From positions 130,896 through 194,895 of the forward strand of contig JABCTZ010000007.1 in NCBI GenBank assembly GCA_018238155.1: a stretch of 64,000 nt of DNA, given 5' to 3'. Under the pieces are notes generated by a model, which worked only from the letters and a program-made list of their open reading frames with translations, was not told where the DNA came from and did not search any database. The stretch is from Candidatus Heimdallarchaeota archaeon. Its GTDB lineage: Archaea; Asgardarchaeota; Heimdallarchaeia; JABLTI01. A program made the translations under genes and the position numbers. This document shows positions 11,339 through 47,927 of the stretch, piece after piece (position 1 is the first letter of the stretch; the number at the start of each line of letters is the position of its first letter).

Positions 11339-11353
11339 ATAACAATTCAACAT

Positions 11354-12218: not shown

Positions 12219-12254
12219 CGTTTTCCTTATATTATTTTTAAATCAAACCATTAT

Positions 12255-12475
12255 TGAGTTTAGGAACCCGAATACTTTCGGTTAACTCCATTGTTGGTTC
12301 TTTTATAATCTAATCCTTATAGTCTTATACATAAGAAGAACACATAACTTTTGGATTGATACCTCGGCAATATCATCTCCTCGGCAAGAGACTTAAAATT
12401 TAGTGATCTTCTTATGTGCACCTCGCACATACTTTGCTACTATGAAAAGGGGCTTTTTTCCCGCGCCCCTCATTC
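12255..12475. ncRNA. Putative structured intergenic RNA or cis-element
   Basis: 16-bp stem (12328-12343 with 12403-12418) enclosing two CCTCGGCAA copies; further hairpins at 12414-12430 and 12448-12470. Confidence 0.35.
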
Positions 12476-12532
12476 ATTTTAATTGTAGCTTTATATTGAA
12501 AGTTTATCATAGAAAATTGAGGATGTCATTCA

Positions 12533-13936
12533 GTGAGCAAAGTTGATCGGAAAATTGTGCCCAGAGGTTATCAAAAATTAATTCTTGATTTAATAAAATT
12601 CCATTTAGACAAGGACAAAAGTGTTATCTTGGAATTAGATTGTGGTATGGGGAAAAGAGTAATCACTTACGAATTATTGACTTCATTATTTCCAGACAAG
12701 AAAATATTGTTAATTGTTCTTTCATCTTCATCACTTGTTGAGACAAAGGAATTTTTAGTCAATGAATATGGAGGAGTTGAAGGCTTTAATTGGATAGGTC
12801 CAGGCATTGGTAATTCATATGCTCAAAAGATGTTGAAAGACTCTCGAGTAATATTATGTACTCCTCAAAAATTGGCAAATACCCTGCAGAAAGCTGCTGC
12901 AGGAATTGCAGAAAGTTTTGATTTAGTTCTCATTAATGAAGTAGATAAATTAGTTCGAAGAGTCGGTTCCAGAAGGGTTCTTGTATATCCTTGGACGACA
13001 CTTTTTGAAAAATTAAAAAATTCACTTGTTATTGGAATGAGTGGAACTCTGCGAGATTCACACTATATTCTCGATCAAGATCAAATAGAAATGCGTCAAG
13101 AGCTTGATACTCTGATGGAATATATTCCAAATACTGAATTAATTTACATGGATTATTTAGCTGGAACTGATGTTGGTGAATTTACTAAAGAAACCAGTGT
13201 AGAAGCGGTTCCAGTAATAGATTCCACAATAGCTGAAATATCATGTATTATTGGTGACCAATTAAGAGAAGCATATAAAGAAATCAGGTTAGAACTCGAG
13301 AGAGAAAATCCTTCTTATTTAAAGCAAGTTCAAGAAATAGGTCCACAGGCTTTATTACAAGCACCTGTTTCAGAAGAAATAAGAGGGAAGGCCCAATCAT
13401 TGACTTTGATTCGAAAGTATCTGTTTGCAATGGTTCCACAACAGTTGAAAAAATTCCTTTGGAAAATACCTGATGTGAATGCCAATAACTTATCAGTAAC
13501 TCCTCAGAAAATATTGAAAGTAGTTGAAATAGCTCAGTCTTCTAAAAAAACAGTTGTTATTTGTTCATATATAACCACAGCAAAAAAAGTTGTTAGTTTT
13601 CTAACAAAAGTAAAGATAAAAGCTTTTTTACTTACAGGTCAAGTTTTTGATAAAAATGCTGTTTTGCAAGCATTTAGAAATTATGATGGGCGTGCTGTTT
13701 TAATAATGTCTCCTGTTGGAGAACGTGATATTGATTTACCGGAAGCAGAGAAATTGATTATTTTTGATTGTGTTAGAACAACAAAAACAGTGTACCAACA
13801 GCTGAAAAGAATTCGTGGTGGACGTGGAATTTTTCTCTATTATGAAGATACATATGAAGCTAAAAAAGTTAATTCTGTAATAAACACAATACTCGAAAGA
13901 TATCCATGGAGCACAAAATTAATTGATGTTCAATAA
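12533..13936 (+). CDS. SF2 helicase-like protein (Hef/ERCC4-related) with degenerate motifs
   Basis: Q-motif PRGYQ, Walker A-like DCGMGKR, Walker B-like INEVD, MSGT, VGERDIDLP. Confidence 0.7.
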   Translation: MSKVDRKIVPRGYQKLILDLIKFHLDKDKSVILELDCGMGKRVITYELLTSLFPDKKILLIVLSSSSLVETKEFLVNEYGGVEGFNWIGPGIGNSYAQKMLKDSRVILCTPQKLANTLQKAAAGIAESFDLVLINEVDKLVRRVGSRRVLVYPWTTLFEKLKNSLVIGMSGTLRDSHYILDQDQIEMRQELDTLMEYIPNTELIYMDYLAGTDVGEFTKETSVEAVPVIDSTIAEISCIIGDQLREAYKEIRLELERENPSYLKQVQEIGPQALLQAPVSEEIRGKAQSLTLIRKYLFAMVPQQLKKFLWKIPDVNANNLSVTPQKILKVVEIAQSSKKTVVICSYITTAKKVVSFLTKVKIKAFLLTGQVFDKNAVLQAFRNYDGRAVLIMSPVGERDIDLPEAEKLIIFDCVRTTKTVYQQLKRIRGGRGIFLYYEDTYEAKKVNSVINTILERYPWSTKLIDVQ

Positions 13937-13970
13937 CACCAAAAATAAAAAGAAAAATTAAATGAGTTGA

Positions 13971-15239
13971 TCACTCATTTTTACTTGGTATTTGATTGGG
14001 AATATCCTTCATTAATTCCAATTGTAATTGAAGAAGTTTTGCCCATGATTTAGCGTTTTGAACAGCACCAACATCAACAAATCCTTCAACTTGGTCAAAG
14101 ATTTGGTTTAAAATGTCAAAGATTTTCAAAATTAATAATTCACTGGACTCAGTCGGTACAGCTAACAGTTTTTCTTTGGTTTTCTGTATATTCTCCTTTA
14201 TTGCTTTAAGTTCAACACGCAATTGATCCTGTTCTTTAGGACTTACAGTAGTAAAAGCTATAGGACTTATAGAAATAGTCTGACGCATATCTTTAGAATC
14301 TGAAAAGCTTAATCGAGCAGAAAGATTCAATTTTTGTGTTTCTTCTAAAACATCTTGAGATTTAACAATACATCTCCAAGTTAACGCTGTCGCAGAATTT
14401 GGTTGTATTTCTTTGACTTTCAATTTACTAAATTCTCTTACAATTGTTACTTCTTTCTTTGGAACCATTTCCAATTCAACGTCGTAAGCAATATCTTCAC
14501 CAGTATTAGTGATTAAAACTTCTATGTCGAACCCATTATCAATGGTTACTTCTCCATCCAACTTTAATTCATAATTTAATACTGGATATTTTTGTGATGA
14601 ATTGATGAAGTTTTCTACACCAAGAACAGTTCGCTCAACATAGGCGGTAAACTCTGACAACCCACTATTAGTTAAAGCGGGAACAAGACTTGTATAAATC
14701 AACGTTTTTACATTATTCATCAGTCTTATGTCGAGCTGATTTTTTGCTAACATTAATTGTATTGGTAAATCGACTATTGCATTTGCCGCAGAATCGTGTC
14801 GTAAAGCATCAATGCGTGTTCGCACTTGCTCAACAACCTGTTGTGCCTGTTCATCTTGAGATACTAGTATGAACAAAATCGATGAAGTAGCATAACATAC
14901 ACCTGCACCAACGGGTTGTTTCCAGACAATGTATTCATCACCTGCAACAACTAGATCTTGTGCAGCAAGAGAAATAGCTTGAGCGGCTTCATTTTCAATG
15001 CCTAATTTTGCAAAAATATCTGCTGCGTGCACTAAAGCTTTTGCGGAATTTTTATGGGTTTTACCATCACGCAATGCTTGGGACCATTCCAGAAAGAGCT
15101 TTGCAGCATCCATCCAAGCTTCTTTAGCTTTTTCTTGATCGTTTGTTCCTTCATAGTACGTGGCCACTTGTTCAGCCTTCGCTACTGCACTCGTATAATC
15201 TTTTTCATTAACAGCTGCTCGTAATTCTTCTCGTAGCAT
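13971..15239 (-). CDS. TPR/SNAP-like helical repeat + Ig-like (CARDB-type) domain + coiled coil
   Basis: Ala-rich helical repeats (AWMDAAKLF, ALVHAADIF, AGVCYATS), then VLITNTGEDIAYDVEL beta-sandwich motif. Confidence 0.5.
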   Translation of the reverse strand: MLREELRAAVNEKDYTSAVAKAEQVATYYEGTNDQEKAKEAWMDAAKLFLEWSQALRDGKTHKNSAKALVHAADIFAKLGIENEAAQAISLAAQDLVVAGDEYIVWKQPVGAGVCYATSSILFILVSQDEQAQQVVEQVRTRIDALRHDSAANAIVDLPIQLMLAKNQLDIRLMNNVKTLIYTSLVPALTNSGLSEFTAYVERTVLGVENFINSSQKYPVLNYELKLDGEVTIDNGFDIEVLITNTGEDIAYDVELEMVPKKEVTIVREFSKLKVKEIQPNSATALTWRCIVKSQDVLEETQKLNLSARLSFSDSKDMRQTISISPIAFTTVSPKEQDQLRVELKAIKENIQKTKEKLLAVPTESSELLILKIFDILNQIFDQVEGFVDVGAVQNAKSWAKLLQLQLELMKDIPNQIPSKNE

Positions 15240-15489
15240 TCTTTCATTCTCGCCGGACAGTATTGTTGCCTCCTCAAACGAAAATATGAATTAACCATCA
15301 TTAATTCGATTAATGATGAAAATTGTTCGCTTCTAGTATTTAATGAGAATATCCCTTTTTATGAATTATGTTAGCTAACTTCCATTTCATAAATCTATTT
15401 TTATCAAATTACATGTATATAATGGTCCTCTCACAAGAAAACAAAATTAAACAAGTAATCTGCAATAACAAAATCTACAAATCTGTTTA

Positions 15490-15906
15490 TTGATAAAAAG
15501 TATTATTTTCTATTCTCAAGTTGTTTATCTTTTTGTTTATTTTTCCTCCCCATTTGCTTTAAATAAAAGTATTGAGGAGAATAGCTTAACTATTAGATAT
15601 ATAGTGAATAAATTTTTGAAAATTACAGAAATTGTTACATACGTAAAGGAAGAGCTTAAAGAAAAATACAATCTTGACTTTCAAGTAGAAGAAAAATATG
15701 GAGATGGAAAAACCTTTGGAATAGAAGTTGCTTTTCCAGTAAAATTATTAGAATTAATTAAATCAAAAAACAGTTATTTTATTACCGGTGATGATGTTTT
15801 TAATTTACTCTGTAAACATGGATTTACAAGTGAACTATATCTGATAAATACAACATCTGACTTTCTATACTTGATTTTTAGTAATGAAAAAAAAGGTAAA
15901 AAATGA
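15490..15906 (+). CDS. Hypothetical protein (start uncertain, possibly later)
   Basis: Only ORF in the interval; no recognised motif. Confidence 0.4.
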   Translation: MIKSIIFYSQVVYLFVYFSSPFALNKSIEENSLTIRYIVNKFLKITEIVTYVKEELKEKYNLDFQVEEKYGDGKTFGIEVAFPVKLLELIKSKNSYFITGDDVFNLLCKHGFTSELYLINTTSDFLYLIFSNEKKGKK

Positions 15907-15940
15907 GTAAAAGATGATTAAGAGGATTTCTGCTTACTAT

Positions 15941-16318
15941 TTACCGAAGATACGATGCTATTTCATTAGCAATTTCTTCACGTAATCTAGCAACATCACG
16001 AATTTCTAATTCTTCTGCTTGTTTTATTGTTTCCTTTAATTGAACAACACCACCAATAGTTGCTATAGAATCAAAAGATAGTTGAAACTCTACATCTAAT
16101 CCCTTAATAATAACATTAACTTTAGTAGGTGGAAAAGTTATTTTTACATTTCTTATTACACCGATTTTACGAGCAGAAGAATCAATGACTTCCTTGCCAA
16201 TTAATTGACCTGGAATACTTAGTTCATATAGCTCTGCCATTATGCTAGCTGTTTCAGCTGTTTTATTATTCTTTTTAGGCATTTTAATCCTCCATACGCA
16301 ATTTTGATACTCGCTCAA
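15941..16318 (-). CDS. PRC-barrel domain protein
   Basis: LIGKEVIDSSARKIGVIRNV ... IATIGGVVQLK pattern. Confidence 0.75.
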   Translation of the reverse strand: MSEYQNCVWRIKMPKKNNKTAETASIMAELYELSIPGQLIGKEVIDSSARKIGVIRNVKITFPPTKVNVIIKGLDVEFQLSFDSIATIGGVVQLKETIKQAEELEIRDVARLREEIANEIASYLR

Positions 16319-16423
16319 ATCATTTCTGCTTTCTCAATAAAAAGAGTTTTAGAACTAGTTAATAAAGTATTTTGTTATAGAGATGACACTTATTTAAAGA
16401 AAAAAGAGGAAAGTAAATGGAAG

Positions 16424-18364
16424 CTAAGATTGAAATTCTTGAGCTTTCATTTGTGAAAAGACTTTTTGATTTGTTAAATCAAAGAAGAGTTTGAATAATT
16501 TTGGATTGGTAGTAACAAAAGCAATATTTTTCTCAGGGTGTATTTTTGGTGCATAAAGAATTTCTTCATTATCTTTAATTGCAATCCAATAGTCCATTCC
16601 TTTGTAATTCATTGTGTTAACATTTCCTCTTTTAACTAAAGAAGTCAGTAAGCTTACATCTTCTTCTTTAATTTTAGAAACAAGCTGATAGTTTGTTATC
16701 TGTGGTTGTTTCTCAATTTCATAGAGGAAATCCGTGAGTATTTCAGGTGTGATAATAGTAATTTCTTCTTTTGCGCGTAATAACATATCTTTCATAGCTC
16801 GAACTATACACTCATTCCCGTAAATTAGACTAATTTCGAGATCTGCAAGAGGCATAACTTTCTCAGACATATTGACAATACCATCAAAGGTCTTTCCAGA
16901 ATCATCAAGGAGAAAAATAGTATTTCCAAGAGTATTATCTAATTTTGTTCCTGCTTCTTCCATGATTGTTGTCGTTGTATTAATTTTCTCTGAGTTTTCG
17001 TTGATAACATTCTTAATTAAATTTTGAATGATGTCTTCTGTGTCTATTCTTGAAAGTGATATTATATCTTTGATCTCCAGCTTGCTTAGGTCAGTTTTTT
17101 CTTCAATTTTTGCAAGTCTATCTGTAATCGAAGCACGAGCAATTTCATCTTGTTTATGTGCTTGTTTGGTTATATTTTCCTTAAATTGAGAAATGTCTTG
17201 AGTAATGTCACCTTTCATTTTCTCAAGTTCTTTGAAGGGCTCAGTAATTTTTTGGTCAATAAATTTAGCTGACTCGTCTCTACTCTCTTCAAGATGAACA
17301 GTAACTACTTCCAAAACATCAGGAACAGTAGATTCAACAGTAGTATTTACATATCGAATAAATTTGGTTACTTCTTCTGAATGCTCTTCTAGGAGAGTTC
17401 CTAAAGTAGTTTTAACTTCACTTTGTAGAAAATCAAATTGCCTAAATAATGGACCAAGTGAGTTGTTTATCATTTGAGAAGTATGGCTGCCAATATCGCC
17501 TTCCATATCACGTGCGAGAATAACTACATTCTTGATTAGTTCACTGATAATTTGAGCAGCGTTTTCCCTAGCAGTGATGTCTTTCTCATCAAGATTAGCA
17601 CTATAGCTAGATGTTGTTGTGAAATTTTGTTTAACTATATTATCACGAAGTTCAGTCAGAGAATCTTCAATATCCCTTTTTAATTTCTCAAGCCTTTCTG
17701 CAACAAGGATTTTATGGTGAATAGTTGATTTCTCTAATTTATCTCGAATCTCTCTGGAATCAATAACAAGCGAGTCTGCGTATTTGGAAATTGCACCAAC
17801 AAAATCATCCTTACTTGTTTCTAAATCTTTATCAAAAGCAGGTATTGTTTTTGCTATGCTATCTGAGGGCCATGCACTAAGGGTTACTCCCAAATGGTTC
17901 AATTGTTGAAAATTGTTATCAACCATTTGATTCAAACTGTGTTCCAAGCGGTCAAATTTCTTTGCTAACTCATCAGTCCGAGTATTTTTTTCCAGTTCAC
18001 AAAAATCGGCTAATTGAGGGACAACAGTTTTGATTTTAGTATTGAACTCATTTACTTGAACATGAAAATTATCCTTAATACTTATCAGTCCTAGTTTAAC
18101 TTCAGAACTTAGCTGTGCATAATCTTTCAAGAAGGGTTCCATAGCAATGTAACGGGGGACTCTACCTGGAAGTTTTTTGATATAACTGATCTCCTCTAAT
18201 TGCTTAATTTGAATATAAATTTCGGGAAGTTCCATTTTAATAGCTAAGTTGATTTCTCCAATAGTAGCATTACCAAGACCCAATACAGTAGAATAAACTA
18301 GAATCTCAGATTCGCTTAAACCACGAGCACGTAAGTAATCAGAACTAACTTCTTTCAGTGACAC
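16424..18364 (-). CDS. TrmB-family regulator with a long central helical/coiled-coil insert
   Basis: N-terminal GLSESEILVYSTVL...PRYIAMEP TrmB HTH; C-terminal PLD-like effector domain (AKEEITIITP, IAIKDNEEIL). Confidence 0.75.
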   Translation of the reverse strand: MSLKEVSSDYLRARGLSESEILVYSTVLGLGNATIGEINLAIKMELPEIYIQIKQLEEISYIKKLPGRVPRYIAMEPFLKDYAQLSSEVKLGLISIKDNFHVQVNEFNTKIKTVVPQLADFCELEKNTRTDELAKKFDRLEHSLNQMVDNNFQQLNHLGVTLSAWPSDSIAKTIPAFDKDLETSKDDFVGAISKYADSLVIDSREIRDKLEKSTIHHKILVAERLEKLKRDIEDSLTELRDNIVKQNFTTTSSYSANLDEKDITARENAAQIISELIKNVVILARDMEGDIGSHTSQMINNSLGPLFRQFDFLQSEVKTTLGTLLEEHSEEVTKFIRYVNTTVESTVPDVLEVVTVHLEESRDESAKFIDQKITEPFKELEKMKGDITQDISQFKENITKQAHKQDEIARASITDRLAKIEEKTDLSKLEIKDIISLSRIDTEDIIQNLIKNVINENSEKINTTTTIMEEAGTKLDNTLGNTIFLLDDSGKTFDGIVNMSEKVMPLADLEISLIYGNECIVRAMKDMLLRAKEEITIITPEILTDFLYEIEKQPQITNYQLVSKIKEEDVSLLTSLVKRGNVNTMNYKGMDYWIAIKDNEEILYAPKIHPEKNIAFVTTNPKLFKLFFDLTNQKVFSQMKAQEFQS

Positions 18365-18446
18365 TTTTTTTTCCTCAATAGGATTTAGGATAAGTATATC
18401 AAAATCATTTCGGTAGGGGACAAGCGAAAATGAAGAACATTAAGAT

Positions 18447-18480
18447 AAAAAAAAGAGAGGTCAGAGAAAATCCGACCTCT
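18447..18480 (-). terminator. Hairpin plus U-tract terminator of the large surface-protein gene
   Basis: Minus strand AGAGGTCGGA-TTTTC-TCTGACCTCT followed by C and a T run, 30 nt after the stop codon. Confidence 0.6.
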
Positions 18481-18510
18481 ACATCATTTGAGGGGAGATA
18501 CTTAAGTAAT

Positions 18511-21500
18511 CTAATGTTTTTTTCCGTTTGCACGGAAATAGATAAGCACTGCTACACCTGTGATAGCGATAAGCCCTACACCTATATAGATGAAGTTGAG
18601 CCAACCTAAATTATTATCTCCAAATGATTGTATCGAAAATGACAAACTATTGGAATAGGAACCCCAACTATTTGTAGATGAACTACTAAAGTCATTCATG
18701 GAAAGATCTCTGATGATGTCACTAGATTCGCTCGTAGTATAGAGAACGCCAAGCATTGATTCTCCTGTTTCATTTGTTGGTGCAGTAGAATCGTCATTTA
18801 TTCCATTTCTAGATGTCATATTGTATTTACTATTGTAACGAATCTCTGCAGATGGGATGTAAATTTCTCCAGAATCTTTGACTAAGAGATTTACTTCAAT
18901 TACCATTGTTTCATTTACACCAAGTGTAATGCCAACCGCTTCGTTAGAATTATAAAATCTTGCAATTCTACCAACAGTCATACCAATTTGAGGATTAATC
19001 CAATCCTTGACGTAAGAGGAGACTTCAACACCTTCAACAGCAACACTATCTGTATCTGCAACGAATCCTAAGTTTCCAGGAATTCTCTGAATATAGATGA
19101 TATTAGTTGGTTCATTACCAATATTGGTAATTGTTGTTCTAAGAGTTATTTCATCTCCAACTTTTGTGTTATTTGTTAGACCAATAAGTTCAGTAGTAAC
19201 TTCAACTTCTGGAGTCGGATATAATGGATCAGTTGAGCCATCTTTTCCAGGTGGTGGTAAAACAAATCCAAAATCCATGGAACTAATAACATATTTATGT
19301 CTCGTAGTGTTGAATATTGGGTGAGAATAAATTAGTGTTTCAATTTCTGCAATTGATTCATTTGACATTCCACGAGTAAGGAACTCTGGTAAAGGTTGAT
19401 AAACATCTCTTGGGTCTGTACCTGTTTCATTACTTGTATAGCCAAATACTGCAAACACTGGTTGTAATCCAAAATAACCTTGAGCTGTAAAGGTGAATTC
19501 AATTGAGACAGTTTCACCGGCTTTAACTAATGGAAAAGTTCCATATGAGTCTTGAACTAGATGAATCTCCTCTAATTCTAAGTCACTAGTAATAAGTGCT
19601 TGATAGAATCGATAATCTATATCAATTGCATCTGCATTGCCAATATTTTCTAGCTCTAAAGTGAAAGTTAGGTTATCACCAAATTGATAAACGTCTTTGT
19701 CTAAACTGACTTTACCAACTAATACAGCTTCATCATCATAGAGTTGTATTACTAAACCATTTGTTAATCCCATGAATTCTGTACCATCTTCTTCATAATA
19801 GACGAAAGGTGATCCTACAACATCCTGAGGGAACAAATTGGTCCAAGTAACTTGGTCTTCAGGAATATGCAATGTTGAACCTCCCATTCTAAGCATTAGT
19901 GTGAAATATTCCTCCCAATCTACTTGCTCTTGTATGAAAATAGTAGCATTAGTTGTTATTCCATCGTCATAATTGTAATAATTGAAAGTACCTGTTGGTA
20001 TATCTCTTACAGCAAAGCTCTTGGTTACATTCTCTCCAGGCGCTAATTCGTCTATAATTGTTGTCAATGTGAAATGGTCTGGAACACCCGTGATATTTGT
20101 TACATCAAAATCACCATTATCAAGCTGTAAGAACGTTTGATCTACATGAGCTAAATCAATTAAATCATCTATACCTTCATCAGGATGATATTCACCTGCT
20201 CCTAACCAAGTGCCAGAAGTGCCATTAAAGAACCAGCCTTCAATTGTATAGATATCTGAACCTGTAATCATTGTATCAGAAATATATCCATCTGTTAAAT
20301 TATAATAAATGATTTTGTTTTCATCAAAGTTTAATTCTTGGTTTTCTACGGGAGCTGAATATCCTGTCAATTCCTCATATGCAAAATCTCCATAAGATAG
20401 AGTTATATTATATGCTGTTTCAACAGCATCAACATTTTCCCAAGTGAAAACATACTCGATATCTTGAGAACCATTAATTGGTAAACTTGAGTTTAATGAC
20501 AATTCGCCAATAACTTGTGGGTATGAACGCTTGTCGGATAAATTAAGATCATAAGATACAAAAATATCCTCATAATTAAAATCTATACCGAAATCAATGA
20601 ATTTTACAAGCCAGAAATATATCCCTCGGTTCTCGTTATATGGCTGATTTGTAATTGGATTAACATCTAACATATCAACAATATAGGGCAAGTTCAATCT
20701 GACTAAACTAGCCCAAGCATTAGATGCTCCAGTAATACTGGTTAAATCTGGCATGGTGTTAAGCAAGCTGAAATCCATAATCGTGCCATCTTTCTCTAAT
20801 CCATCGGGATTGACCCAAGCACATTGAAGAACTGGAACTAAACCCAAATCAATGTGCATAGCATCCAAAAACTTGGCCTTTATTAATGTGATAGCCATGG
20901 CTTTAACAGGAGCCTCATTTAAAACACTTGTAGTAATTCCTTCGCCAAATCCCTCATCTGATATATAACTTGCATAGACATCAGTAAATGAATCAAGATA
21001 ACTTTCTGATATTATACTCTGATAAACAAGAGTAGATACTCCATCATATCCATTCCATTTACCATATATTAGTGTAAATGAGAGATTATAGCTTGTTTCT
21101 ATCATTGAAGCAATAGCATTCCCTTGAGTGAGGCATTCGCTTGTGGTCAAACCTTGGAAGGTTAATGATAATGTTGCTCCATCTCCAATATCCCAGAATC
21201 TTCTCTGAGAATATTCTCTCCAAGATATTTGATTTGCAACAATAAAATTCAAAGCTTCTAAATTGTCATATGATGTAACATCAAAAGGCAACTCTACAGT
21301 TCCTCCAAAAAATCCTACATGAGCACCAATAGCTGTATCCTTTAGTGGATGTATATCAATCTGTTCAAAATATCTGCTTCCTGTATATTCCGCTTCAGCT
21401 AATTGTACATTACTTTCATTTAATGAATTACCTTTAAGCTGTGCTGTCGAAATAGACATGGCAATAAATAGAAGTGTGATTACTATTACCATTGATCCTT

Positions 21501-32677: not shown

Positions 32678-34582
32678 TTAAAAAGAAGAAATTATTTTCT
32701 TCTTCTTAATTTTTAACAATATTGATAATATTATTGGGACAATAATAACTCCTCCTAATTCAATGTTTATCCCAGTAGTTTTGACAGTTGATGTTGTTTT
32801 TTGATAATCATTGATATACTCCAATAGGTCAAGTACTTCGATACTCAATGTTGTAGAAGAGTTATAGTCCATTTGTTGATAATAGGAAGGAATTATTTCA
32901 AGTAAACTCTCAATTTGTTCAAATGTTTCATTTATTACTTCTGGCATTTCTAAGCCTTCATATAATGTCAACGTTTGTTCAAGTTTTGATAGAGCACTCA
33001 AATAATGACCATCTGAATGTGCTCTTCCTATAGCATCTTTGTAAAAAATGCTGAAACTTTGTTCATAAGCGAAATAGCTCATTACATCCGCAACAAAAGC
33101 GGAACCCCATCCATATGTACTACTATGAGGGTGAGGTAATCCTAGAGAATGACCTAATTCGTGGATCATTACTGAAGACATTCCTCGTTTTGGTTCTGTA
33201 ACTATTCCATCTTGAAATATAGAGTTTTGAGTACCAAGCAAAATTTCCCAACCCATACCGCCTAAACCTGCAAAAGATATTCCATTCCACTTGAAATGAA
33301 CATCATTAGTTAAAAAGAAGTAGCATGGAAGTACTTTATCCGCAAGAGATAAATTAAAATGAACACTGAGTTCACTTTGCAAATAATTAAACAATCCACT
33401 CGAAACTTCGACGTATTTGACACCTGTGGAATCAATTTCAATATTATTTTGAATATAATCAAATAAATTAGGGTAATCTGTCAATTCCACCCATTCAATA
33501 TCTATTAACCAATTAATCCAAGGAAAATCATTCTTGAGCTGATCTATAATTCTGTTTTGGGATATACACCAAGTAAGATCTTCAAATGCATATCCATTAT
33601 TTGTGAGGTTATTAAACACCTTAACTTGCAAAGAAATAGATCTCCCAAGGGGAGGGTTGTTTACAGGTCCTGAGAAAACATTACCTAAGTAAGTATTAAT
33701 CCAATCAACAAGATATTCAGTTAATTTTTCCTTTCCCTCAACAGTTTCCATATCAAATGTTTGGGTAAGATTGTCTAAATCCGGATGATTGTAATAGGAC
33801 TTGTATCCTAAACCTAAACTTTGCCACGCAGTAGTAATATAATCAAAAAACCATGTTCTTGCTGAAAGATCCAAAAAACAAAATCGATAATTTCCACCCC
33901 AACCCATTGCGGAACGCTTACTAAGGTTTCCATACCCGGAATACCACCAAGATATTGATTCATTTGTATCTGAACTTACTCCTTCAACATCATACCAATG
34001 TTCCAAACTATGGTCTTGTGAATCTAATTTAGAATAATTTAAAACGAACAAAGTATATCCGGGATCATTAACGGGTTCTGTATAGAGATTATTATAAAGA
34101 TAATCCTCTACTAATCCGGCATCAATTGATAATCCATCTGCTGGTAAGAAAATGTCTGATCTTTCACCTGAAATTAAATCCTCTTCCAATAACGTAGTAT
34201 TGACTTCATAACCAGTACCTGTTCCATTATTTCCTATGGAAACAAGATAACTTTCCAAATCATTTGTTACGTTTTCTTCTGCGTAACTAAACTCAAAATT
34301 GAAATGGAAATTGGAATGAGGGTTGGAACTTACAAAAGAGAAATCATCTTTAAGTTCAGATCTGATTGCTGTTTCATTGATTAATTCTTCATTATAACCA
34401 ATAAATTCGATTTTCAATTTAAGGTTCTCATCTTTTGTCCAAGCATTTATTCTTTCGAAATCATTTTGATCATTTAGTATTGCTCGTCCAAAATAATTTG
34501 AGTCGTTAAAATTGCCAATCATAATAACTGAAATCACTAAAATTGCAGCAAGAAATATTTTAATACTTTTATTAATTTTCAA
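32678..34582 (-). CDS. Secreted, membrane-anchored metzincin zinc metalloprotease
   Basis: HELGHSLGLPH, Met-turn DVMSY, N-terminal signal, C-terminal TM with KKKK. Confidence 0.8.
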   Translation of the reverse strand: MKINKSIKIFLAAILVISVIMIGNFNDSNYFGRAILNDQNDFERINAWTKDENLKLKIEFIGYNEELINETAIRSELKDDFSFVSSNPHSNFHFNFEFSYAEENVTNDLESYLVSIGNNGTGTGYEVNTTLLEEDLISGERSDIFLPADGLSIDAGLVEDYLYNNLYTEPVNDPGYTLFVLNYSKLDSQDHSLEHWYDVEGVSSDTNESISWWYSGYGNLSKRSAMGWGGNYRFCFLDLSARTWFFDYITTAWQSLGLGYKSYYNHPDLDNLTQTFDMETVEGKEKLTEYLVDWINTYLGNVFSGPVNNPPLGRSISLQVKVFNNLTNNGYAFEDLTWCISQNRIIDQLKNDFPWINWLIDIEWVELTDYPNLFDYIQNNIEIDSTGVKYVEVSSGLFNYLQSELSVHFNLSLADKVLPCYFFLTNDVHFKWNGISFAGLGGMGWEILLGTQNSIFQDGIVTEPKRGMSSVMIHELGHSLGLPHPHSSTYGWGSAFVADVMSYFAYEQSFSIFYKDAIGRAHSDGHYLSALSKLEQTLTLYEGLEMPEVINETFEQIESLLEIIPSYYQQMDYNSSTTLSIEVLDLLEYINDYQKTTSTVKTTGINIELGGVIIVPIILSILLKIKKKKIISSF

Positions 34583-36264: not shown

Positions 36265-37008
36265 GTGCTTGTGGAACAAATGCAAACAACTATGCTATAT
36301 ATGAAAGATAATTATCTCAAAACCTTTTCAGCAAAAGTTATTGCCGTAGGTGAAGATTATGTTGTTCTAAATCAAACAGCATTTTATCCATTAGGTGGTG
36401 GACAAGAAAGTGATTTAGGAACCCTAACATATAATGAAAATATTTTTTCCATTAAGAGTGTTAGAAGAGATCAAGGTCAAGTTAAACATTTTATAGTTGA
36501 AACAGAGAAATTACTCAAAGTTGGGAACTTGGTTGAATGTTCAATTGATTGGAAAAGACGATTTATTCATATGAGATATCATACAGCTATTCATGTATTA
36601 AGTAGGTATATGCAATTAGAGCATAATGCAGATGTTCTTGGAAATAATATTTCAACAAGAAGCGGTCGAGTAGATTTTGATATAGAAGATGCTCTGACAG
36701 AAGAGCAACTTAAAGATATAGAAGTTGGAGTAAATAAGATAATCGATCAAAATCTTCCTATTGAAATTAATTTTATTCCAAGAGACGAAGCAATTACATT
36801 TCTCAAAAAACATGGCTATCAAACCGATTATATCGATATGATTCCATCATCAGTAAAGATCTTCCGAATAATTTCAGTTGGTGACTATGATTTTGCTTCT
36901 TGTGCAGGCACTCATTTAGCTAATACATCTGAAATTGGTAAGATAAGAATTACAAAAAGGAGAAGCATGGGTAAAGGAAAAGAGCGAATCACTTTAGCAT
37001 TAGACTAA
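36265..37008 (+). CDS. alaX: Free-standing alanyl-tRNA editing protein AlaX
   Basis: TAFYPLGGGQ, MRYHTAIHVL, CAGTH. Confidence 0.9.
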   Translation: MLVEQMQTTMLYMKDNYLKTFSAKVIAVGEDYVVLNQTAFYPLGGGQESDLGTLTYNENIFSIKSVRRDQGQVKHFIVETEKLLKVGNLVECSIDWKRRFIHMRYHTAIHVLSRYMQLEHNADVLGNNISTRSGRVDFDIEDALTEEQLKDIEVGVNKIIDQNLPIEINFIPRDEAITFLKKHGYQTDYIDMIPSSVKIFRIISVGDYDFASCAGTHLANTSEIGKIRITKRRSMGKGKERITLALD

Positions 37009-37097
37009 AGTCAATAGTTTATTTCCAACAGAATTGGTCACAATTTTATCATTGTATCTACAAAGAAACGTAGGAAATAAAGCTATACTCAAGACTT

Positions 37098-37981
37098 TTA
37101 TGTTCTGCTCTTTTCTATCTTACAAATACGAATGAAACTACAACCCCAACAAGAGCTTTTATCTAAAAAGAATTCATTATCAAGTATTTTTTCTAATGAA
37201 TTCGCAAAAATTCTTTCAAATGCTATACTGTTTGCTTCTTTCAAATTGTAGACTTTTCTTATGCCCATTTCATAATAATAACAGCCAACCTCTAGCACAT
37301 CAAAATCATATTCTCCTTCTTCTTTATTCTCTAAGCGATATTCATTGAATAAACTTGCATAAAACAATAATAGAAGATGATCATTAGGTTCAGGAGTTGG
37401 TTTATAATCTATAATCCTAAAACCATTCTTTTTTTCACATAATTCTATACAATCTATCCGCCCTCTTTTCTTTTCAGTAATTAACCGAACTTCATTGTCA
37501 ACTGGATACCAATAACAATCCTCCTTCCCCTTAAGATAGTCCTTCTGTTGTTCGGTCCAGTAAAGTAATTTTACATTGTCCTTGCATACTTCATCTGGCG
37601 GTATTGTTTGAGTGATTACATTTGCATATTTTCTATGAAATGTTTCAAGTTATGATAATCGATACCATCACCCTTCTTCCCTTGGTATCCTCGCATTTTG
37701 TAAGAAGACAATGACCTTCTACTACTCAAGAAATTTTCTTTGTTATATCCCACACAACTCACTTGCACGAATCCTCTATAGGCTTTTAAAATGGTTGGTG
37801 CTCTTCGTTCTCCTTTTACCAGTTTGCTGAGGGAAGTGAATAGTGGATACTTGTTTCCTTCTTGATTTCCAACAATTTTTATCCAATAATCACATTTCTT
37901 GATGAGTGGTTTAGAAGTAACCATTGGTGTTTCTAATCGTCCTAATAATGTTACTTTTTTCTTTAGTTCTGTTGTTGCCAT
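37098..37981 (-). pseudogene. OB-fold-like + Cas4-like PD-(D/E)XK nuclease, split by one frameshift near 37650
   Basis: ORF 37616-37981 ends ...GDGIDYHN. The adjacent frame is open from 37649 to 37098: LETFHRK...RGRIDCIE...RIIDYKP...LLFYASL...CWGCSFIRIC. Confidence 0.65.
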
Positions 37982-38094
37982 GCTTCTCTCACCTGTGTTA
38001 ACTTCGTATTCAAGTTCACTATTCGTTCTTCTTCAATAATGGAAATTCTTCCATCATCATTTTCTTGCCCTAGTTTTCTCTCAAAAGCAACCAA
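37963..38094 (-). pseudogene. C-terminal remnant of an upstream gene overlapping the nuclease start
   Basis: LVAFERKLGQENDDGRISIIEEERIVNLNTKLTQVREAWQQQN*; overlaps the next start in operon fashion. Confidence 0.35.
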
Positions 38095-38171
38095 AGAAAA
38101 AGAAATTCAAAATACGAAAAGGACTAGGTCCTAATTATCCAGAAGAACTGCAAAGACTACTCATTGCTCTA

Positions 38172-38738
38172 ATGTTACACGATTTTATTCATACCAAAAA
38201 ACATCCAAGTAAGATTTACCAACAAATAAACATTGAGGATAAAGAGATTAGAGAAGCTTGTAATAACCACCACAATGGAGAGGAAAGTATAAATGCTCTT
38301 TTACCGATTGTAAAACACTATGATAGACTTGCATCTTCTATCAGTCGGAAGAAGCGATTCAAAAGCACAAGTCGATATGATTGGGAAAATGGAGAAATAG
38401 ATTTCAAACTTCTGAAACAAGAACTTGAGCAAGTTCAACACTCTCCTTATCAGTTATACAGTTACATCTATCAGTCAAAAAAATTAGGAAGAATAGTCGA
38501 GGCAATGGATTATGGAAATAATAGTTTAAAGAAACACCTTTTATTGATGGTAAATTTAGCAATAAATGATTTTTATGACGAAAAATTAAAAATAAGTGAT
38601 GACACTATCTCATTATCGGCAAGTGACCAAGACGCACTCGTCACTGCTACGGATGCTGAGATGCATGCTTTTCTGACCATGAGCAATGCTAATTCTGAGA
38701 GGGCAACCACCTCGAAGAAGAGAAGGCTCGGAACATAG
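38172..38738 (+). CDS. HD-domain protein resembling the Cas10/Csm1 N-terminus, probably 5'-truncated (frame open from 38040)
   Basis: LLIALMLHD ... NHHN ... YDRLASSISR ... SLKKHLLLMVNLA. Confidence 0.55.
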   Translation: MLHDFIHTKKHPSKIYQQINIEDKEIREACNNHHNGEESINALLPIVKHYDRLASSISRKKRFKSTSRYDWENGEIDFKLLKQELEQVQHSPYQLYSYIYQSKKLGRIVEAMDYGNNSLKKHLLLMVNLAINDFYDEKLKISDDTISLSASDQDALVTATDAEMHAFLTMSNANSERATTSKKRRLGT

Positions 38739-38782
38739 GTAGAGAAAGTCAAATTAGAGAAAAATTTGAAGGTTACTAACAA

Positions 38783-39964
38783 ATGTCCAAATCTCTTCAA
38801 GTCATTGATGAACAACCTATAATTAATTTAGCAAAACGACTAATAAAAAGTGAAAGTCCAAGTGGCAATGAGAAGAAACTAGCAACTTTAATGGCAATCG
38901 AGATGAAGAAGGCTGGTTTTAATAAAGTTCAATATGATGAGAACACAAATGATATTGTTGGTGTGATGTTGGGCTTAGGGAAAGGTAAATCCCTTGTTTT
39001 AGCTGGTTATATTGATACTGTCCCACCTGGTTCAATGCCTGAACCATTTCTTGCAAAAGAAATGGATGGTTCAAAGTTGGGTACAAAGGGAAAGGTGCTT
39101 TATGGTCGTGGTGCATGTGATATGAAAGCTGGACTTGCAGCTATGATTAGTACAGGAGCTGCATTGAAAAGATCAAGAGCACGATTGAAAGGAGATTTTA
39201 CCATAGTTGGATTAGCCAATTCAAAAACAGGTAATTCTACCAGCATAAAAAAACTAATTCAGAAATTTGAACTCAATCCTGATTATCTTGTATCCTGTGC
39301 TCCAACAAATTTAGATATAAATATTGCTCATCCTGGTCAAGCCACTTATAGTGTAATAACTAAAGGAAAAATGTCCAATATTGGCTATCCTTCAAATGGC
39401 GATAATGCAATTCTTAAAATGAATAAGGTTATTGAATGTTTAATAAATGATTCAGTATTGCCTGAAGATAAGCGCTTTGGAAAAGCGAATATGATTCTAA
39501 GTTCTATTTCTTCTCTTCCATTAGGTGAATCTCATTCAGTACCTTGTTTATGTCAGTCTTTATTAGTTAGACAGATTTTCAAAGGAGAAAATCCTGAGAA
39601 AATTAAGAGTGATTTTATGAACATCTTAAAGAAAAATAACTTCAAAGAAGATGAAATTAGAATTAGTATGACAAGATACTTTAAAGCTCTAGAAACCGCA
39701 TCAGATGTAGAAATCATATCGATTCTTCAAGATGCAAGAAACCTTGCATTAGGCAAGCCTGCAAAAATTGGTCAATGGACAAGTGGTGTTAACATTTCGG
39801 AAATGTTTGATATCGATAAACCATTAGTGGGTTTTGGTCCTGGAGATGAGAAATACGCTCATTCACCTTTTGAGCATGTACCTGTTGATCAAATTATCAA
39901 AGCAACAAAAGTTTATTCAGTTTTAGCAGAAAAAATTTGTGTACAGATGAAGGATAAAAGTTAG
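38783..39964 (+). CDS. M20/ArgE-family (YgeY-like) metallo-hydrolase with degenerate metal ligands
   Basis: SPSGNE, GYIDTVP, YGRGACDMK, GFGPG...AHSPFE. Confidence 0.8.
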   Translation: MSKSLQVIDEQPIINLAKRLIKSESPSGNEKKLATLMAIEMKKAGFNKVQYDENTNDIVGVMLGLGKGKSLVLAGYIDTVPPGSMPEPFLAKEMDGSKLGTKGKVLYGRGACDMKAGLAAMISTGAALKRSRARLKGDFTIVGLANSKTGNSTSIKKLIQKFELNPDYLVSCAPTNLDINIAHPGQATYSVITKGKMSNIGYPSNGDNAILKMNKVIECLINDSVLPEDKRFGKANMILSSISSLPLGESHSVPCLCQSLLVRQIFKGENPEKIKSDFMNILKKNNFKEDEIRISMTRYFKALETASDVEIISILQDARNLALGKPAKIGQWTSGVNISEMFDIDKPLVGFGPGDEKYAHSPFEHVPVDQIIKATKVYSVLAEKICVQMKDKS

Positions 39965-44582: not shown

Positions 44583-47500
44583 ATGATAGCGCGTGAGAAA
44601 ATAATTGAAAGATCTGCTGCAGAATTCTTTGAAGCAAATAAGGCAATTGCAGGATTCGATAATCCTACCAGGTCTACTTATACAAGTATTAGAGAACTAG
44701 TTGAAAATGCATTAGATGCTGCAGAAAAAGGGGGAATTTTACCTGATGTCAATATTCTAATCGAATTGATGTCTACAGAGGAAATCGGCGAATTAATGGG
44801 TATTAAAGATTACCGACCACCAGATGAAGAATCAGGAATTGAATTCATTAGATTGTCTGTGCGAGATAATGGTATTGGTATTCGTCACGCAGACATTCCA
44901 AAATTATTTGGAAGAGTACTTACCGGTTCAAATTACGGAGAACGACAATCACGTGGTCGATTTGGTTTAGGGGCAAAAATGGTTTTAATTTATTCTCAAT
45001 CAACTATTCGAGTTCCATTTGAAATTAAATCACGATTAGCTCTTTCTAAGAAAAAATCAGCCGAATTTACAAGTCATTACAAATTGTTTATTGATATTGT
45101 TAGAAATGCTCCTGAAATCGTTGATTCAACAAAATATACCGGCAAATCAAAGAATCAATTAAAAGTACATGGTACTGAGGTTACTTGTTGTTTTGCAGGC
45201 ACATGGAGAAGGTCGAAAAGATATATCTTTGAATATTTAGAAGAGATGGCTGTTATAACACCATATGCGTCATTCACTATTACTACTCCTGATAATCCCG
45301 ATGAACCTATCCTTCATAATAGAACCGTTGATGTAATTCCTGACCCACCAATAGAAGTACCATTACATCCAATCGGGACAGATATTAATCAAATAAAAAG
45401 TGAGATTTCTAGAACAAGATGTAAAGACATGAAGAATTTTCTGAAAACCCATTTTCAGAGAATTGGTGATAAAACTGCTGCTCAGGTTCTAAAGGTATCT
45501 AAAATTAAAGCAAGTAAAAATCCTCTGAATCTAGATGAAATGGAACTCCGAAGATTAATTCATGAAGGCTTTACAAAGGTTAAATTTTTCCCTCCTGATG
45601 GTAAATGTTTGTCACCGTTAGGACATGAAAATTTAGCAGCAGGTTTAGAAGATGTATACCTACCTGAATTCAGCTGTTCAGAAGGCAGACCACCTTCAAG
45701 CTATAGTGGACATGCTTTTCAAGTTGAAGTAGCTATAGGCTATGGTGGGGAAAACCTTAGTGCGCCTTACAAATTAATGCGTTTTGCCAATAGAATTCCT
45801 TTACTTTTTGGTGAAGGAAATGATTTGATAAAGAAAACAATTGAAAGCATTAATTGGTCCAATTATAAGACCAATCTCAATAATGATCCAATAATATTTG
45901 CCGTGTCATTAGTTAGTACTAAAATACCTTTCCCAGAAACAAGCAAGGAATATATTGCTGAAGTAGATGAGATTAGAAGGGAACTTCGGTTATGTTTACA
46001 AAAAGCCGGAAGGAAGCTAATGAGTTTCCAAAGAGCTTTGAAGAAAAAAGAGCAAGCAGCGCGAAGATCGAAAATATTCGAAAAATACGCCCCAACCGTT
46101 TCTTCAATTGTAGGACAAATGCTTGGAAAAATGGATGAAGATGAATTTCCATTTATGTTCAGTTCAACACAATTTAGTAAATGTTTGAAACAAAGAGATG
46201 GTTCGATTTTTCTACCAAAGAACCCCATCCCAGTTGAAGCTCTACCTATAGATTCAATTGAGGGTGTCAATCTTGATAGATATGATATTCAGACACTACA
46301 AGATCTCATTTTAATCGATGATGAGCAAATGCAAGAATTAATTTCTCTCGGATTATCTGAAGAAGCATTAGATCAAGCAGAACAAATACTACGGGCAATT
46401 CTTGAGCTGCCTGAACTAGCAAAAGATGAATTAGTAGAATCTGTAAGTGCTAAAGCCCTGGATGAATTTGCTCGAGAGAGAGGAATAATTGATGGTATGA
46501 ATCTTTATGAAGGAATGGATTCAGTATCAATCCTTCCAGGTGTTGGTCCCGCGACTCAGAAATCACTTCGAGCTCGTGGTGTTAAAACAATTAAAGATTT
46601 CTTCTTAATGGAAAATGAAGAACTTACCAAAAGTAGTTTGAATATTGCTATAATCGCTGAACTTAAATCTAAATGCAATGTTGATGTTTTACCAAATATT
46701 GATCAAAGAACGGTAGAGGAATTGCATAACAAAAAAGTTTACAGTGTACTTGAATTTCTAGAAGCAGATGATGAAGAGCTAAGCCAATTGTCTGGTTTAT
46801 CAGAAGAACGTGTGACTGCGTTATTTGAATTAATCAAAACATTACTTGATTTAGATATTACATCTCTTAGAGAAGAAAGTACCAAAATAGAAATTGACGA
46901 ATCAATAGATGATGAGGAACTTGTCACTCAACCCACTAAGGTCAAAATACCCACTCCACCTCCTGGCTTCCTAGAAGCAGATGCTGAAGTTGATGAATTG
47001 GGAGGTGTAGGAAAAACAATGGCTGCGAGATTATCAGCTAAAGGTATTGAAACAGTAGCCAAATTCTATATGGTTACTAATAGTCGCTTACTTAAGATTA
47101 AAGGTCTTGGAGCAAAAACAATAGCCGACAATCGTGGGAATACGGATGTAATAGTATTACCAAGAATAAATTTTGAGGGTAAAAGTGATCTGAATCTAAT
47201 GGGTATATTTACTGTGCAACAATTTTTCGACGCCGATGATGATAGTTTAACAAATGCAAGAGGATTACGATCATTAACGATTACAAAGTTAAAATTAGAC
47301 ATTGAAGAAAAACTGCTGATGACGCCTGGCTCAAAAATAGTTCCTTTGAGGAAAAAGAAAAAACCTGTGAAGAAACCAACGAAAACAGCACCAACTAAAG
47401 AAAAAATCACTCCTGTTAAACCATCTAAAGCCAAAAAAGCAGCAAAGACTGTTGTAAAGAAGGATACTTCTATAGCTGAGTTTCTAGGCACAAAGAAACC

Positions 47501-47927
47501 TAAAGTAGATGATGAGGAAACCACTAAAGTTGTAAGAGGACCACCAAAAGGGATGCTAGAACCTACACTTAGAATTAGTAAAATCCCAGGTATGGGCAAA
47601 ACAACAGAAGAACGATTAGCAAAGGTGGGCGTAAAATCAGTAGGGGATGTTTACAAGAAAAGCATCGCTCGATTAGGTTCAGTAAAAGGAGTAAAAGAAG
47701 AAGATATTATCGAAATGCGAAAAATGCTCTCGGTTGCAGTATTGCCTCATGTCTCACAAATGGTGCAAGAAGAACTGAACAAAGCAGGAATTTACACTGT
47801 GAAACAATTCCAAAGTGCAAAAATAGCTAAAACATCAGCTGTCAAAGGTTTGGGAGTAAAAACAGTGAAAAATATTAGAAAGCAAATAAACAGAGCACTA
47901 AAAACATCAGCAGAATTAGAAGGGTAG
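44583..47927 (+). CDS. top6B: DNA topoisomerase VI subunit B with a long C-terminal HhH-repeat extension
   Basis: GHKL motifs ELVENALDA, DNGIGI, SRGRFGLGAK; RFANRIPLL; SKE; then repeated HhH motifs. Confidence 0.95.
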   Translation: MIAREKIIERSAAEFFEANKAIAGFDNPTRSTYTSIRELVENALDAAEKGGILPDVNILIELMSTEEIGELMGIKDYRPPDEESGIEFIRLSVRDNGIGIRHADIPKLFGRVLTGSNYGERQSRGRFGLGAKMVLIYSQSTIRVPFEIKSRLALSKKKSAEFTSHYKLFIDIVRNAPEIVDSTKYTGKSKNQLKVHGTEVTCCFAGTWRRSKRYIFEYLEEMAVITPYASFTITTPDNPDEPILHNRTVDVIPDPPIEVPLHPIGTDINQIKSEISRTRCKDMKNFLKTHFQRIGDKTAAQVLKVSKIKASKNPLNLDEMELRRLIHEGFTKVKFFPPDGKCLSPLGHENLAAGLEDVYLPEFSCSEGRPPSSYSGHAFQVEVAIGYGGENLSAPYKLMRFANRIPLLFGEGNDLIKKTIESINWSNYKTNLNNDPIIFAVSLVSTKIPFPETSKEYIAEVDEIRRELRLCLQKAGRKLMSFQRALKKKEQAARRSKIFEKYAPTVSSIVGQMLGKMDEDEFPFMFSSTQFSKCLKQRDGSIFLPKNPIPVEALPIDSIEGVNLDRYDIQTLQDLILIDDEQMQELISLGLSEEALDQAEQILRAILELPELAKDELVESVSAKALDEFARERGIIDGMNLYEGMDSVSILPGVGPATQKSLRARGVKTIKDFFLMENEELTKSSLNIAIIAELKSKCNVDVLPNIDQRTVEELHNKKVYSVLEFLEADDEELSQLSGLSEERVTALFELIKTLLDLDITSLREESTKIEIDESIDDEELVTQPTKVKIPTPPPGFLEADAEVDELGGVGKTMAARLSAKGIETVAKFYMVTNSRLLKIKGLGAKTIADNRGNTDVIVLPRINFEGKSDLNLMGIFTVQQFFDADDDSLTNARGLRSLTITKLKLDIEEKLLMTPGSKIVPLRKKKKPVKKPTKTAPTKEKITPVKPSKAKKAAKTVVKKDTSIAEFLGTKKPKVDDEETTKVVRGPPKGMLEPTLRISKIPGMGKTTEERLAKVGVKSVGDVYKKSIARLGSVKGVKEEDIIEMRKMLSVAVLPHVSQMVQEELNKAGIYTVKQFQSAKIAKTSAVKGLGVKTVKNIRKQINRALKTSAELEG

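Follow-up and report, generated by a model that had tools for sequence, protein, structure and literature searches.

A probable relic of an array-less ARAMP cassette upstream of a peptidase gene in a heimdallarchaeal genome

In type III CRISPR systems, the subunit that bears the HD domain sits on a subunit of the Cas5 family (Csm4). Two names given to array-less systems matter here: ARAMP (Asgard RAMP), reportedly coined by Makarova, Wolf, Shmakov, Liu, Li, and Koonin in 2020 (CRISPR J 3:156), and HRAMP, said to have been described by Makarova et al. in 2019 (FEMS Microbiol Lett). As portrayed in two reviews by the group behind the CRISPR classification, both are derived from type III, lack arrays, and combine diverged Cas5 and Cas7 proteins with HNH or PD-(D/E)xK nucleases, and most ARAMPs carry a distinct Cas1 (PMC8730458, PMC12669027). 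In HRAMP (haloarchaeal RAMP; cited in PMC8730458), likewise array-less, Cas5 and Cas7 are highly diverged and accompanied by extra nucleases. Type IV-C has a Csf1/Cas10-like large subunit with an HD domain alongside Cas7 and Cas5 (PMC8730458, PMC13676074). Its effector, in which Csf2 is the Cas7 and Csf3 the Cas5, makes use of a CRISPR array. The subject of this article is a locus at positions 37020-38779 of a 64,000-nucleotide (nt) stretch of DNA, the window, from a Candidatus Heimdallarchaeota archaeon. It is very probably a rearranged relic of an ARAMP cassette, an array-less type III derivative. Its protein parts are dead, and a 172-nt RNA element is the sole part still intact.

A first-pass annotation had read the same DNA differently, seeing in the frame 38040-38738(+) a miniature HD protein that would form, with a Cas4-like nuclease, a candidate for an undescribed system. 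The locus represents no new miniature system and no two-gene HD plus Cas4 module; it is a decayed, rearranged relic of a known kind, since the loci to which it belongs fit the already named ARAMP as outlined in the same review passages (PMC8730458, PMC12669027). The likeness extends to the hosts (Asgard archaea), to diverged Cas7 and Cas5 homologues in adjacent genes (21 of 24 loci) that are nearest to type III, to the lack of a linked array, and to an associated PD-(D/E)xK nuclease (Cas4-like, six loci) and a protein with LAGLIDADG and helix-turn-helix (HTH) domains (11 loci). A distinct Cas1 may be a further likeness, put forward here from a motif alignment. The window copy differs in being scrambled and reduced to fragments. 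HRAMP is set apart by its descriptions: it belongs to Haloarchaea, and the reviews call it only distantly related to ARAMP. Type IV-C resembles these loci as a pared-down effector that retains an HD domain related to Cas10 but has no working Palm, and differs in that here the HD domain is fused to a small RAMP protein and no array is linked. As for type III itself, the HD domain and the Cas5-like part are fused here but are separate subunits there.

The HD frame and its parent protein

The frame 38040-38738(+) runs for 232 codons from stop to stop (translation ...ALMLHDFIH...NNHHNGE...HYDRLASSISRKKR...NSLKKHLLLMVNLA). It does contain the motif series LHD...HH...DRLASxxxR...SLxxHL that had first drawn attention to it, with LHD at 38175-38183 and with HH, DRLASSISR, and SLKKHLLLMVNLA in the same frame. 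The H...HD...D metal-binding motif set of generic HD phosphohydrolases is also present, a likeness at the level of the superfamily only. The conserved positions H47/D48 (38178-38183), H78, D95, and H166 correspond to invariant or near-invariant columns of the family alignment, and the HD part in the window keeps them all. An open run of 232 codons is not due to chance, because at the genome's G+C content of 33% about 7% of random codons would be stops (by our own arithmetic). The first ATG, however, comes only at 38172, inside the first helix of the HD domain, and the product from there would have 188 amino acids (aa). The frame therefore represents a fragment truncated at its 5' end rather than a miniature protein, and corresponds to the C-terminal two-thirds of a protein of 320-380 aa, in which a Cas5-like RAMP domain is fused to a Cas10-type HD domain (hereafter RAMP::HD).

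Pfam, NCBIfam, and PADLOC gave nothing useful on the open reading frames (ORFs) of the window, and the HD frame was not recognized. A six-frame search of the same genome returned 17 matches to the HD frame, several of them interrupted by stops, and family members, whole or fragmentary, number about a dozen in the assembly. The intact forms in the genome are 320-363 aa long and have an N-terminal domain that the HD ORF of the window lacks. In the intact 363-aa paralogue (G000:C42, where G000 is the genome of the window), this domain matches a 121-aa minus-strand ORF of the window (residues 4-78, E 1.3e-8). A search of 1.84 billion cluster representatives found 97 relatives at E<=1e-3 and 16 at E<=1e-30, well above what chance would give, publicly named 'hypothetical protein' and mostly from Candidatus Heimdallarchaeota, with one from Thorarchaeota. 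Full-length relatives from this search have 270-360 aa and full-length members of the family 270-380 aa; short fragments are many, well over half of the 97 representatives being under 200 aa. The family is found in 27 of 61 related genomes and in three of the 13 genera of the class, mainly in two of these. Invariant or almost so in it are the HD pair, two further histidines, an aspartate, a tyrosine, and a late histidine, all kept in the HD part of the window copy, and the N-terminal domain has a glycine-rich loop, LGxxxxEGxGxIxW. Full-length members end shortly after the HD domain, in a tail modelled with low confidence, and have no Pfam match beyond a weak one to HD.

AlphaFold2 models were compared with known structures. 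In the model of the intact paralogue (model confidence, pLDDT, 84.7), set against 48,161 PDB representatives, residues 1-127 match RAMP proteins, with Csm4 (9g9a_G) at Z 7.8 and type IV, type VII, Cas6, Cas7, and Cmr chains at Z 5-7, while residues 143-302 are best matched by the HD domain of Csm1/Cas10 (6ifk_A, Z 8.3; 6mua_A, Z 7.8). The window sequence 38094-38735, modelled alone (pLDDT 88.9), aligns in VIA-align with Csm1 6ifk_A over 145 residues (Z 8.2, root-mean-square deviation 3.8, 20% identity), and matches 6mua_A at Z 7.9 and Cmr2 9x25_B at Z 5.0. Generic HD enzymes (Rel/SpoT, small alarmone hydrolases, YpgQ) follow after a clear gap, at Z 3.0-3.8. Among the structural matches listed there was no Cas3 HD chain for the window HD model and no type IV-C large subunit for either model. 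The comparison of Cas10 with generic HD families that had been proposed as a check is thus led by Csm1 and Cmr2, with the generic enzymes trailing, and according to these models the domain is of the Cas10/Csm1 type, as suspected from its motifs, and not that of a generic HD hydrolase. Foldseek gave neither model a match in the PDB at E<=1e-3, RAMP and Csm1 chains filling the weak lists, and a search of PDB sequences with the family profile returned noise (best E 0.079; type IV Cas6, E 0.68).

The domain shares with Cas10, Csm1, and Cmr2 (6ifk_A, 6mua_A, 9x25_B) the HD fold and the motif order HD, H, HH, D, late H, at 20-21% identity over 135-145 aligned residues. The protein as a whole is nevertheless not a Cas10, because only the low-confidence tail follows the HD domain and there is no Palm domain. 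Cas10 has 700-1000 aa, whereas RAMP::HD has 320-380 aa and is without the Palm/cyclase, GGDD, the zinc finger, and D4, so no cyclic oligoadenylate signalling is to be expected of it. At the window locus, too, no Palm/GGDD part is found.

Anatomy of the relic and its intact counterparts

The relic was mapped by tblastn with the proteins of the intact cassette from the closest congener (G009:C67). The resulting pieces are collected in Table 1, together with copies of the RNA element taken up in the next section.

Table 1. Pieces of the relic in the window and copies of its RNA element elsewhere in the genome (G000)
Feature	Coordinates	Strand	Remarks
Whole 1.76-kb insert	37020-38779		Between AlaX-like gene (ends 37008) and M20 peptidase gene (starts 38783)
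Cas4-like, residues 69-254 of 254-aa form	37092-37649	-	85% identity; without usable start codon
Cas4-like, residues 37-68, other frame	37646-37741	-	94% identity; in frame with RAMP head
RAMP head, residues 1-82 of RAMP::HD	37736-37981	-	70% identity; fused to Cas4-like fragment at Y-N-K-E
Cas7-like, residues 268-314 (last 47 codons)	37966-38106	-	66% identity, E 2.8e-14
Cas10-type HD, about residues 115-338 of RAMP::HD	38094-38738	+	Frame open from 38040, first ATG 38172
RAMP::HD, residues 134-338	38121-38735	+	75% identity (tblastn)
RNA element, 172 nt	38606-38777	+	Covariance model R1, 185.5 bits
RNA element copy	C39:46937-47110	-	
RNA element copy	C39:63752-63923	+	
RNA element copy	C13:48240-48410	+	
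RNA element copy	C6:18536-18705	+	
RNA element copy	C6:11468-11638	+	
RNA element copy	C11:59526-59701	+	
RNA element copy	C10:6717-6893	-	
RNA element copy	C17:5432-5602	+	

In intact loci, the end of the Cas7-like gene overlaps the start of the RAMP::HD gene, and the Cas4-like and HD genes are oppositely directed. In the relic, the RAMP head is inverted relative to its own C-terminal HD part. What had been taken for a neighbouring OB-fold ORF is in fact this head, residues 1-82 of the same RAMP::HD gene. A Cas4-like PD-(D/E)XK frame does adjoin the HD frame, in the form of a fragment with the frameshift already suspected, which lies near 37646-37649, and with residues 1-36, including the N-terminal cluster cysteine, gone. 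The fragment keeps GRID...IIDYK and C-x2-C-x5-C, its four-cysteine Fe-S set being incomplete, and scores 12.1 bits against PDDEXK_1, compared to 38.9 bits for the intact paralogue. The map bears out the early impression of decay. It also qualifies the statement that no other cas genes or repeats are present: there is no array, but a Cas5-like RAMP head and a Cas7-like tail lie next to the HD frame.

The relic is inserted DNA, in keeping with the mobile element that the first-pass annotation had supposed, the segment being missing from nine congeners. In these (G001 is without the region and does not enter the count), the AlaX-like and M20 genes lie 120-170 bp apart, and nothing there matches 37020-38779; in the genome at hand, the relic has taken the place of the native intergenic sequence. 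The junctions in the window show no target-site duplication, and no perfect inverted repeats flank the inverted segment. The surrounding genes have housekeeping functions (glutamine synthetase, AlaX-like, M20 peptidase, ABC ATPases, MobB, class II aminoacyl-tRNA synthetase), and the integrase expected to accompany a mobile element is not among the genes annotated around the relic.

The end state could have been reached as follows. A full cassette would have inserted between the AlaX-like and M20 genes after the lineage split from its congeners. An inversion between about residue 82 of RAMP::HD and about residue 37 of the Cas4-like protein, at a shared Y-(N)-K-E, would then have given rise to the observed fusion, and a deletion of about 8 kb would have removed the remainder of the cassette. 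Left behind would be, on the minus strand, the tail of the Cas7-like gene and the RAMP head joined to the frameshifted Cas4-like fragment and, on the plus strand, the HD part without a start; no working protein could be made from any of these pieces.

What a working cassette contains can be judged from the surroundings of 25 copies in this genome and its relatives, taken as stretches no longer than 20 kb, in which all ORFs were clustered. In 21 of 24 loci, a gene encoding 250-330 aa precedes the RAMP::HD gene, usually overlapping it. The partner may be called Cas7-like, because Pfam places it in the RAMP superfamily (RAMPs, 28.3 bits, cut-off 22.1); one such protein also gives a weak NCBIfam match to Csf2 (22.4 bits against a cut-off of 130). 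A model of the complex of the Cas7-like and RAMP::HD proteins reached an interface score (ipSAE) of 0.66, compared to 0.44 for the best control and above a pass mark that is reached by 58 of 80 solved complexes and by 2 of 110 mismatched pairs. The runs had at least 46% of contacts in common and a partner pLDDT of at least 70, and the modelled interface lies on the RAMP domain and includes the glycine-rich loop. Cas5-Cas7 complexes have already been solved, and the high score may merely reflect likeness to them.

In the genus of the window, a divergent block often lies near the RAMP pair, and a four-gene part of it is present in six loci. Its genes encode, in order, a 523-aa protein with LAGLIDADG and XRE-type HTH domains, a winged-HTH (wHTH) protein, a 670-aa protein, a second wHTH protein, and a 250-aa Cas4-like PD-(D/E)XK nuclease. 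The Cas4-like gene occurs in six loci of the one genus. Its five intact copies have all four cysteines (one N-terminal, the others in the C-terminal C-x2-C-x5-C), and the columns D134, D/E148, and K151 (GRID, IIDYK) are conserved, the window fragment included. In their nuclease motifs, their cysteines, and their position next to a putative Cas1-like gene, these intact neighbours resemble Cas4; they differ from it in matching Pfam PDDEXK_1 and not a Cas4-specific model, and the window copy differs further in being frameshifted, fused, and without residues 1-36. The HD plus Cas4 module first proposed thus holds insofar as the family recurs near a Cas4-like gene in Heimdall-type genomes. The core, however, consists of the Cas7-like RAMP and RAMP::HD genes, and the Cas4-like gene is not half of a two-gene unit but part of the four-gene block, a separate unit present at about six loci in a single genus.

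The gene for the LAGLIDADG-HTH protein (L045:12911-14482(+) and 10 other loci) is conserved beside the RAMP pair in 11 loci, and its LAGLIDADG part, which resembles a homing endonuclease, matches PDB 1dq3 (E 1.9e-5). The 670-aa protein (L045:15513-17531(+) and relatives) has an N-terminal wHTH, zinc ribbons, and a conserved C-terminal half. A C-terminal series in it, EGG...W-CHR...GL-LD-IE, aligns on the catalytic residues (E, H, and D/E) of the Cas1 that the genome itself encodes, although without significance (hhalign E 0.08). Pfam gave no Cas1 match for this protein, a PDB profile search gave only the wHTH, and a protein atlas gave nothing above 0.80. In a second genus (L057:2981-10468, L058, L060, L050), two extra small genes precede the Cas7-like and RAMP::HD genes, and there is also a divergent gene encoding 990-1440 aa; Pfam matches none of the three. 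About 6 kb to the right of the relic, the window contains a gene for a 1113-aa protein (44583-47927(+)), whose counterpart in the closest congener (L045:5774-9115(-), cluster c39) lies directly downstream of an intact ARAMP cassette. Its position may reflect rearrangement in the surroundings of the cassette. Elsewhere in the window, 32678-34582(-) encodes a 634-aa protein with N- and C-terminal hydrophobic stretches, a zincin-like HELGHSLGLPHPH motif, and no Pfam match.

There is no CRISPR array in the window. A repeat scan of the genome found three, none of them in the 10-20-kb stretches around intact copies, and 430 kb around 26 loci contained no array save one, 5.5 kb from a pseudogene fragment on the 9-kb contig C12. 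The view that the system is independent of CRISPR arrays stands to this extent, no array being linked to the window locus or to intact copies. The three arrays (G000:C12:7829-8992, C15:363585-364603, and C27:25158-26771) have a 37-nt repeat, GTTTCAATACTCGTAAATGAGCTTTATTCTTTGCAAT, and a canonical Cas1 gene lies beside one of them (G000 C15:365909-366790). The genome therefore possesses normal CRISPR-Cas besides its ARAMP copies.

The RNA element

The structured element at the right end of the relic covers the last 44 codons of the HD frame, the stop codon, and 39 nt beyond, and it closes with GGUUAC, resembling a Shine-Dalgarno (SD) sequence, 5 nt before the ATG of the M20 gene. The tail of the protein encoded by this region is modelled with low confidence. 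The region is 90% identical to another relic copy, compared to 68% for the adjoining coding DNA, and the genome has 12 copies of the element.

Folded one sequence at a time, several copies agree in architecture. AUCUCA/UGAGAU forms the closing helix, which has inner stems; a helix that runs across the stop codon closes a second domain, after which come a hairpin of variable sequence and then an SD-like GGUGAU or GGUUAC. The two sides of the stop-codon-spanning helix are more complementary to their own partners than in any of 2000 permutations, and the terminal hairpin has at least six perfect pairs in 14 of 24 copies, the sequences of the stems differing. Covariance model R1 was used to re-align 32 copies, in an alignment fitted to the structure of the model. 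In this alignment, 82.2% of cells are paired, compared to 70.0% when shuffled; 38 of 52 pairs are changed on both sides, compared to 25 when shuffled; and the covariation score is 0.327, compared to 0.155 in shuffled alignments (0 of 500) and 0.05-0.075 with the partners slid. Many pairs switch between G-U and G-C, consistent with an RNA of this strand. The copy in the window has the top score against R1 and is complete. The full fold emerged only after single-sequence folding and re-alignment to the covariance model; RNAalifold on a plain MAFFT alignment gave just two short hairpins. Rfam showed no credible family in 36900-38900, and, searched as exact 13-mers, the 110 nt downstream of the stop codon have no meaningful second copy within 16 loci; guide-like targeting is accordingly not claimed.

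In intact cassettes, the Cas7-like subunits and the Cas5-like domain would assemble on an RNA, the likeliest candidate being the structured element that the 3' end of the HD gene encodes, and the tethered HD domain would then cut nucleic acid, much as the Cas10 HD domain does in type III.

In 9 of the 12 copies of the element in this genome, a co-oriented gene starts at most 21 nt from the end of the element, and a weaker copy (31.6 bits) before the gene for elongation factor 2 makes 10 such sites. The eight copies listed in Table 1 range from a 1-nt overlap with the start codon of an unrelated co-oriented host gene to a distance of 21 nt from it, and upstream of most of them lie only decayed remains of an HD gene. 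Genes abutted in this way encode M20 peptidase, ABCE1/RLI, L37e, S19e, an RFC-like AAA+ protein, an Arf/Ras-like GTPase, Roadblock/LC7, Snf7, and DUF6320. At the L37e site, the closest congener has a deletion derivative of the same element, so this relic predates their split. At the S19e site, the closest congener has the whole element as well, and in the four other congeners searched the match begins only at about the start of the gene. Two further elements end 6-8 nt from tRNA genes (L015:19558-19699(-) and L047:10637-10770(+)), which are 134-142 nt long and probably contain introns (Rfam tRNA, 28.6 and 32.9 bits); ARAGORN called no tRNA beside either element. At G000:C17 (L015), 5432-19550, two direct copies of the element flank about 14 kb with a full cassette: the genes for the Cas4-like protein, a wHTH protein, the putative Cas1-like protein, a second wHTH protein, and the LAGLIDADG-HTH protein, and then the Cas7-like and RAMP::HD genes. 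Recombination between direct repeats laid out in this way could leave solo elements.

Weighing the relic and its meaning

Several points weigh against reading the locus as a dead ARAMP cassette that was first inverted and then deleted. The HD frame is open over 232 codons and has every conserved residue, hence either the decay set in recently or some constraint is still at work. The sequence of events, inversion before deletion, is read from the end state, and two truncated copies placed head to head would look similar. The genome is metagenome-assembled, in 46 contigs, with 5.9% contamination. The Cas1-like label of the 670-aa neighbour is putative, coming from the motif alignment of a sequence to which Pfam is blind. 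Finally, the loci fit ARAMP feature by feature, this putative Cas1 aside, as matched to descriptions in review passages and not to the primary list of the family.

Of the alternatives, the one that best survives accepts that the proteins are dead and proposes that the region has been kept because its RNA is still used, either as the leader or ribosome-binding region of the M20 gene or in trans by intact ARAMP proteins. This is a possibility to be held tentatively. The element is complete and scores higher than any other copy; relic copies hold the fold while their coding parts decay, with the disparity in identity already noted; elements stand repeatedly just before gene starts; and the peptidase gene has lost its native upstream region. 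On the other hand, the close identity of the copies could be due to recent copying instead of selection, and the covariation was counted on an alignment fitted to the structure of the model.

Much less probable is that the HD ORF, whether of 188 aa from 38172 or of 232 aa, is a working stand-alone nuclease acting with the Cas4-like protein. The length of the open run and the conserved residues would suit such a protein, the HD domain folds confidently by itself in the model, and several relatives in databases start at the same M-LHDF position. These short entries are most simply seen as truncated relics or contig ends, given how many of the 97 representatives are short, and a start at 38172 would fall within the first helix of the domain. 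The RAMP domain, which provides the modelled interface with the Cas7-like protein, is missing from the frame or inverted, no Cas7-like gene is left, and the presumed partner is frameshifted, startless, and without its first 36 residues.

One might also ask whether the head-to-head layout is a chimera of assembly, the reads of a repeated family having been mis-joined. The dozen or so family copies and fragments, the number of contigs, and the estimated contamination make the question reasonable, but the answer is very unlikely to be yes. Since no other copy in the assembly is more than 72% identical in DNA to the relic (the RNA element, at 90% over 172 bp, aside), the relic could not have been stitched together from them. 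Moreover, both flanks run into host genes that are syntenic in nine congeners, and the RAMP::Cas4-like junction is in frame at the short common Y-(N)-K-E. That the frame encodes a generic HD-superfamily phosphohydrolase unrelated to CRISPR proteins is hardly credible, for although it draws only weak matches to Pfam HD (PF01966; 11 of 23 family members at E<=1, best 7.5e-5) and none from NCBIfam or PADLOC, the modelled domain matches Cas10 HD domains at Z 8.2, 7.9, and 5.0 as against at most 3.8 for generic enzymes, and in the family it shares a protein with a RAMP domain and has a RAMP gene as partner.

As a relic of an ARAMP cassette, the locus is in itself ordinary, a broken copy of a catalogued, experimentally untested system. 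Its absence from nine congeners supports the idea that ARAMP cassettes move. The intact family, to judge from the models, combines a Cas10-type nuclease domain with a Cas5-like subunit in one protein, which would give a minimal effector of a Cas7-like protein, a RAMP::HD protein, and an RNA. The pattern of decay, in which the proteins are lost and a covarying RNA with an SD-like end stays at a host gene's start codon, is repeated at about ten sites of the genome. It is conceivable, though we would not yet count on it, that the 172-nt RNA is the partner of array-less Cas7/Cas5-HD effectors, and perhaps that it also marks the end of a mobile cassette that lands at gene starts or tRNA genes. If so, relics with dead proteins and an intact RNA at a start codon would be orphan RNA loci, kept as leaders of host genes or used in trans by intact ARAMP proteins.

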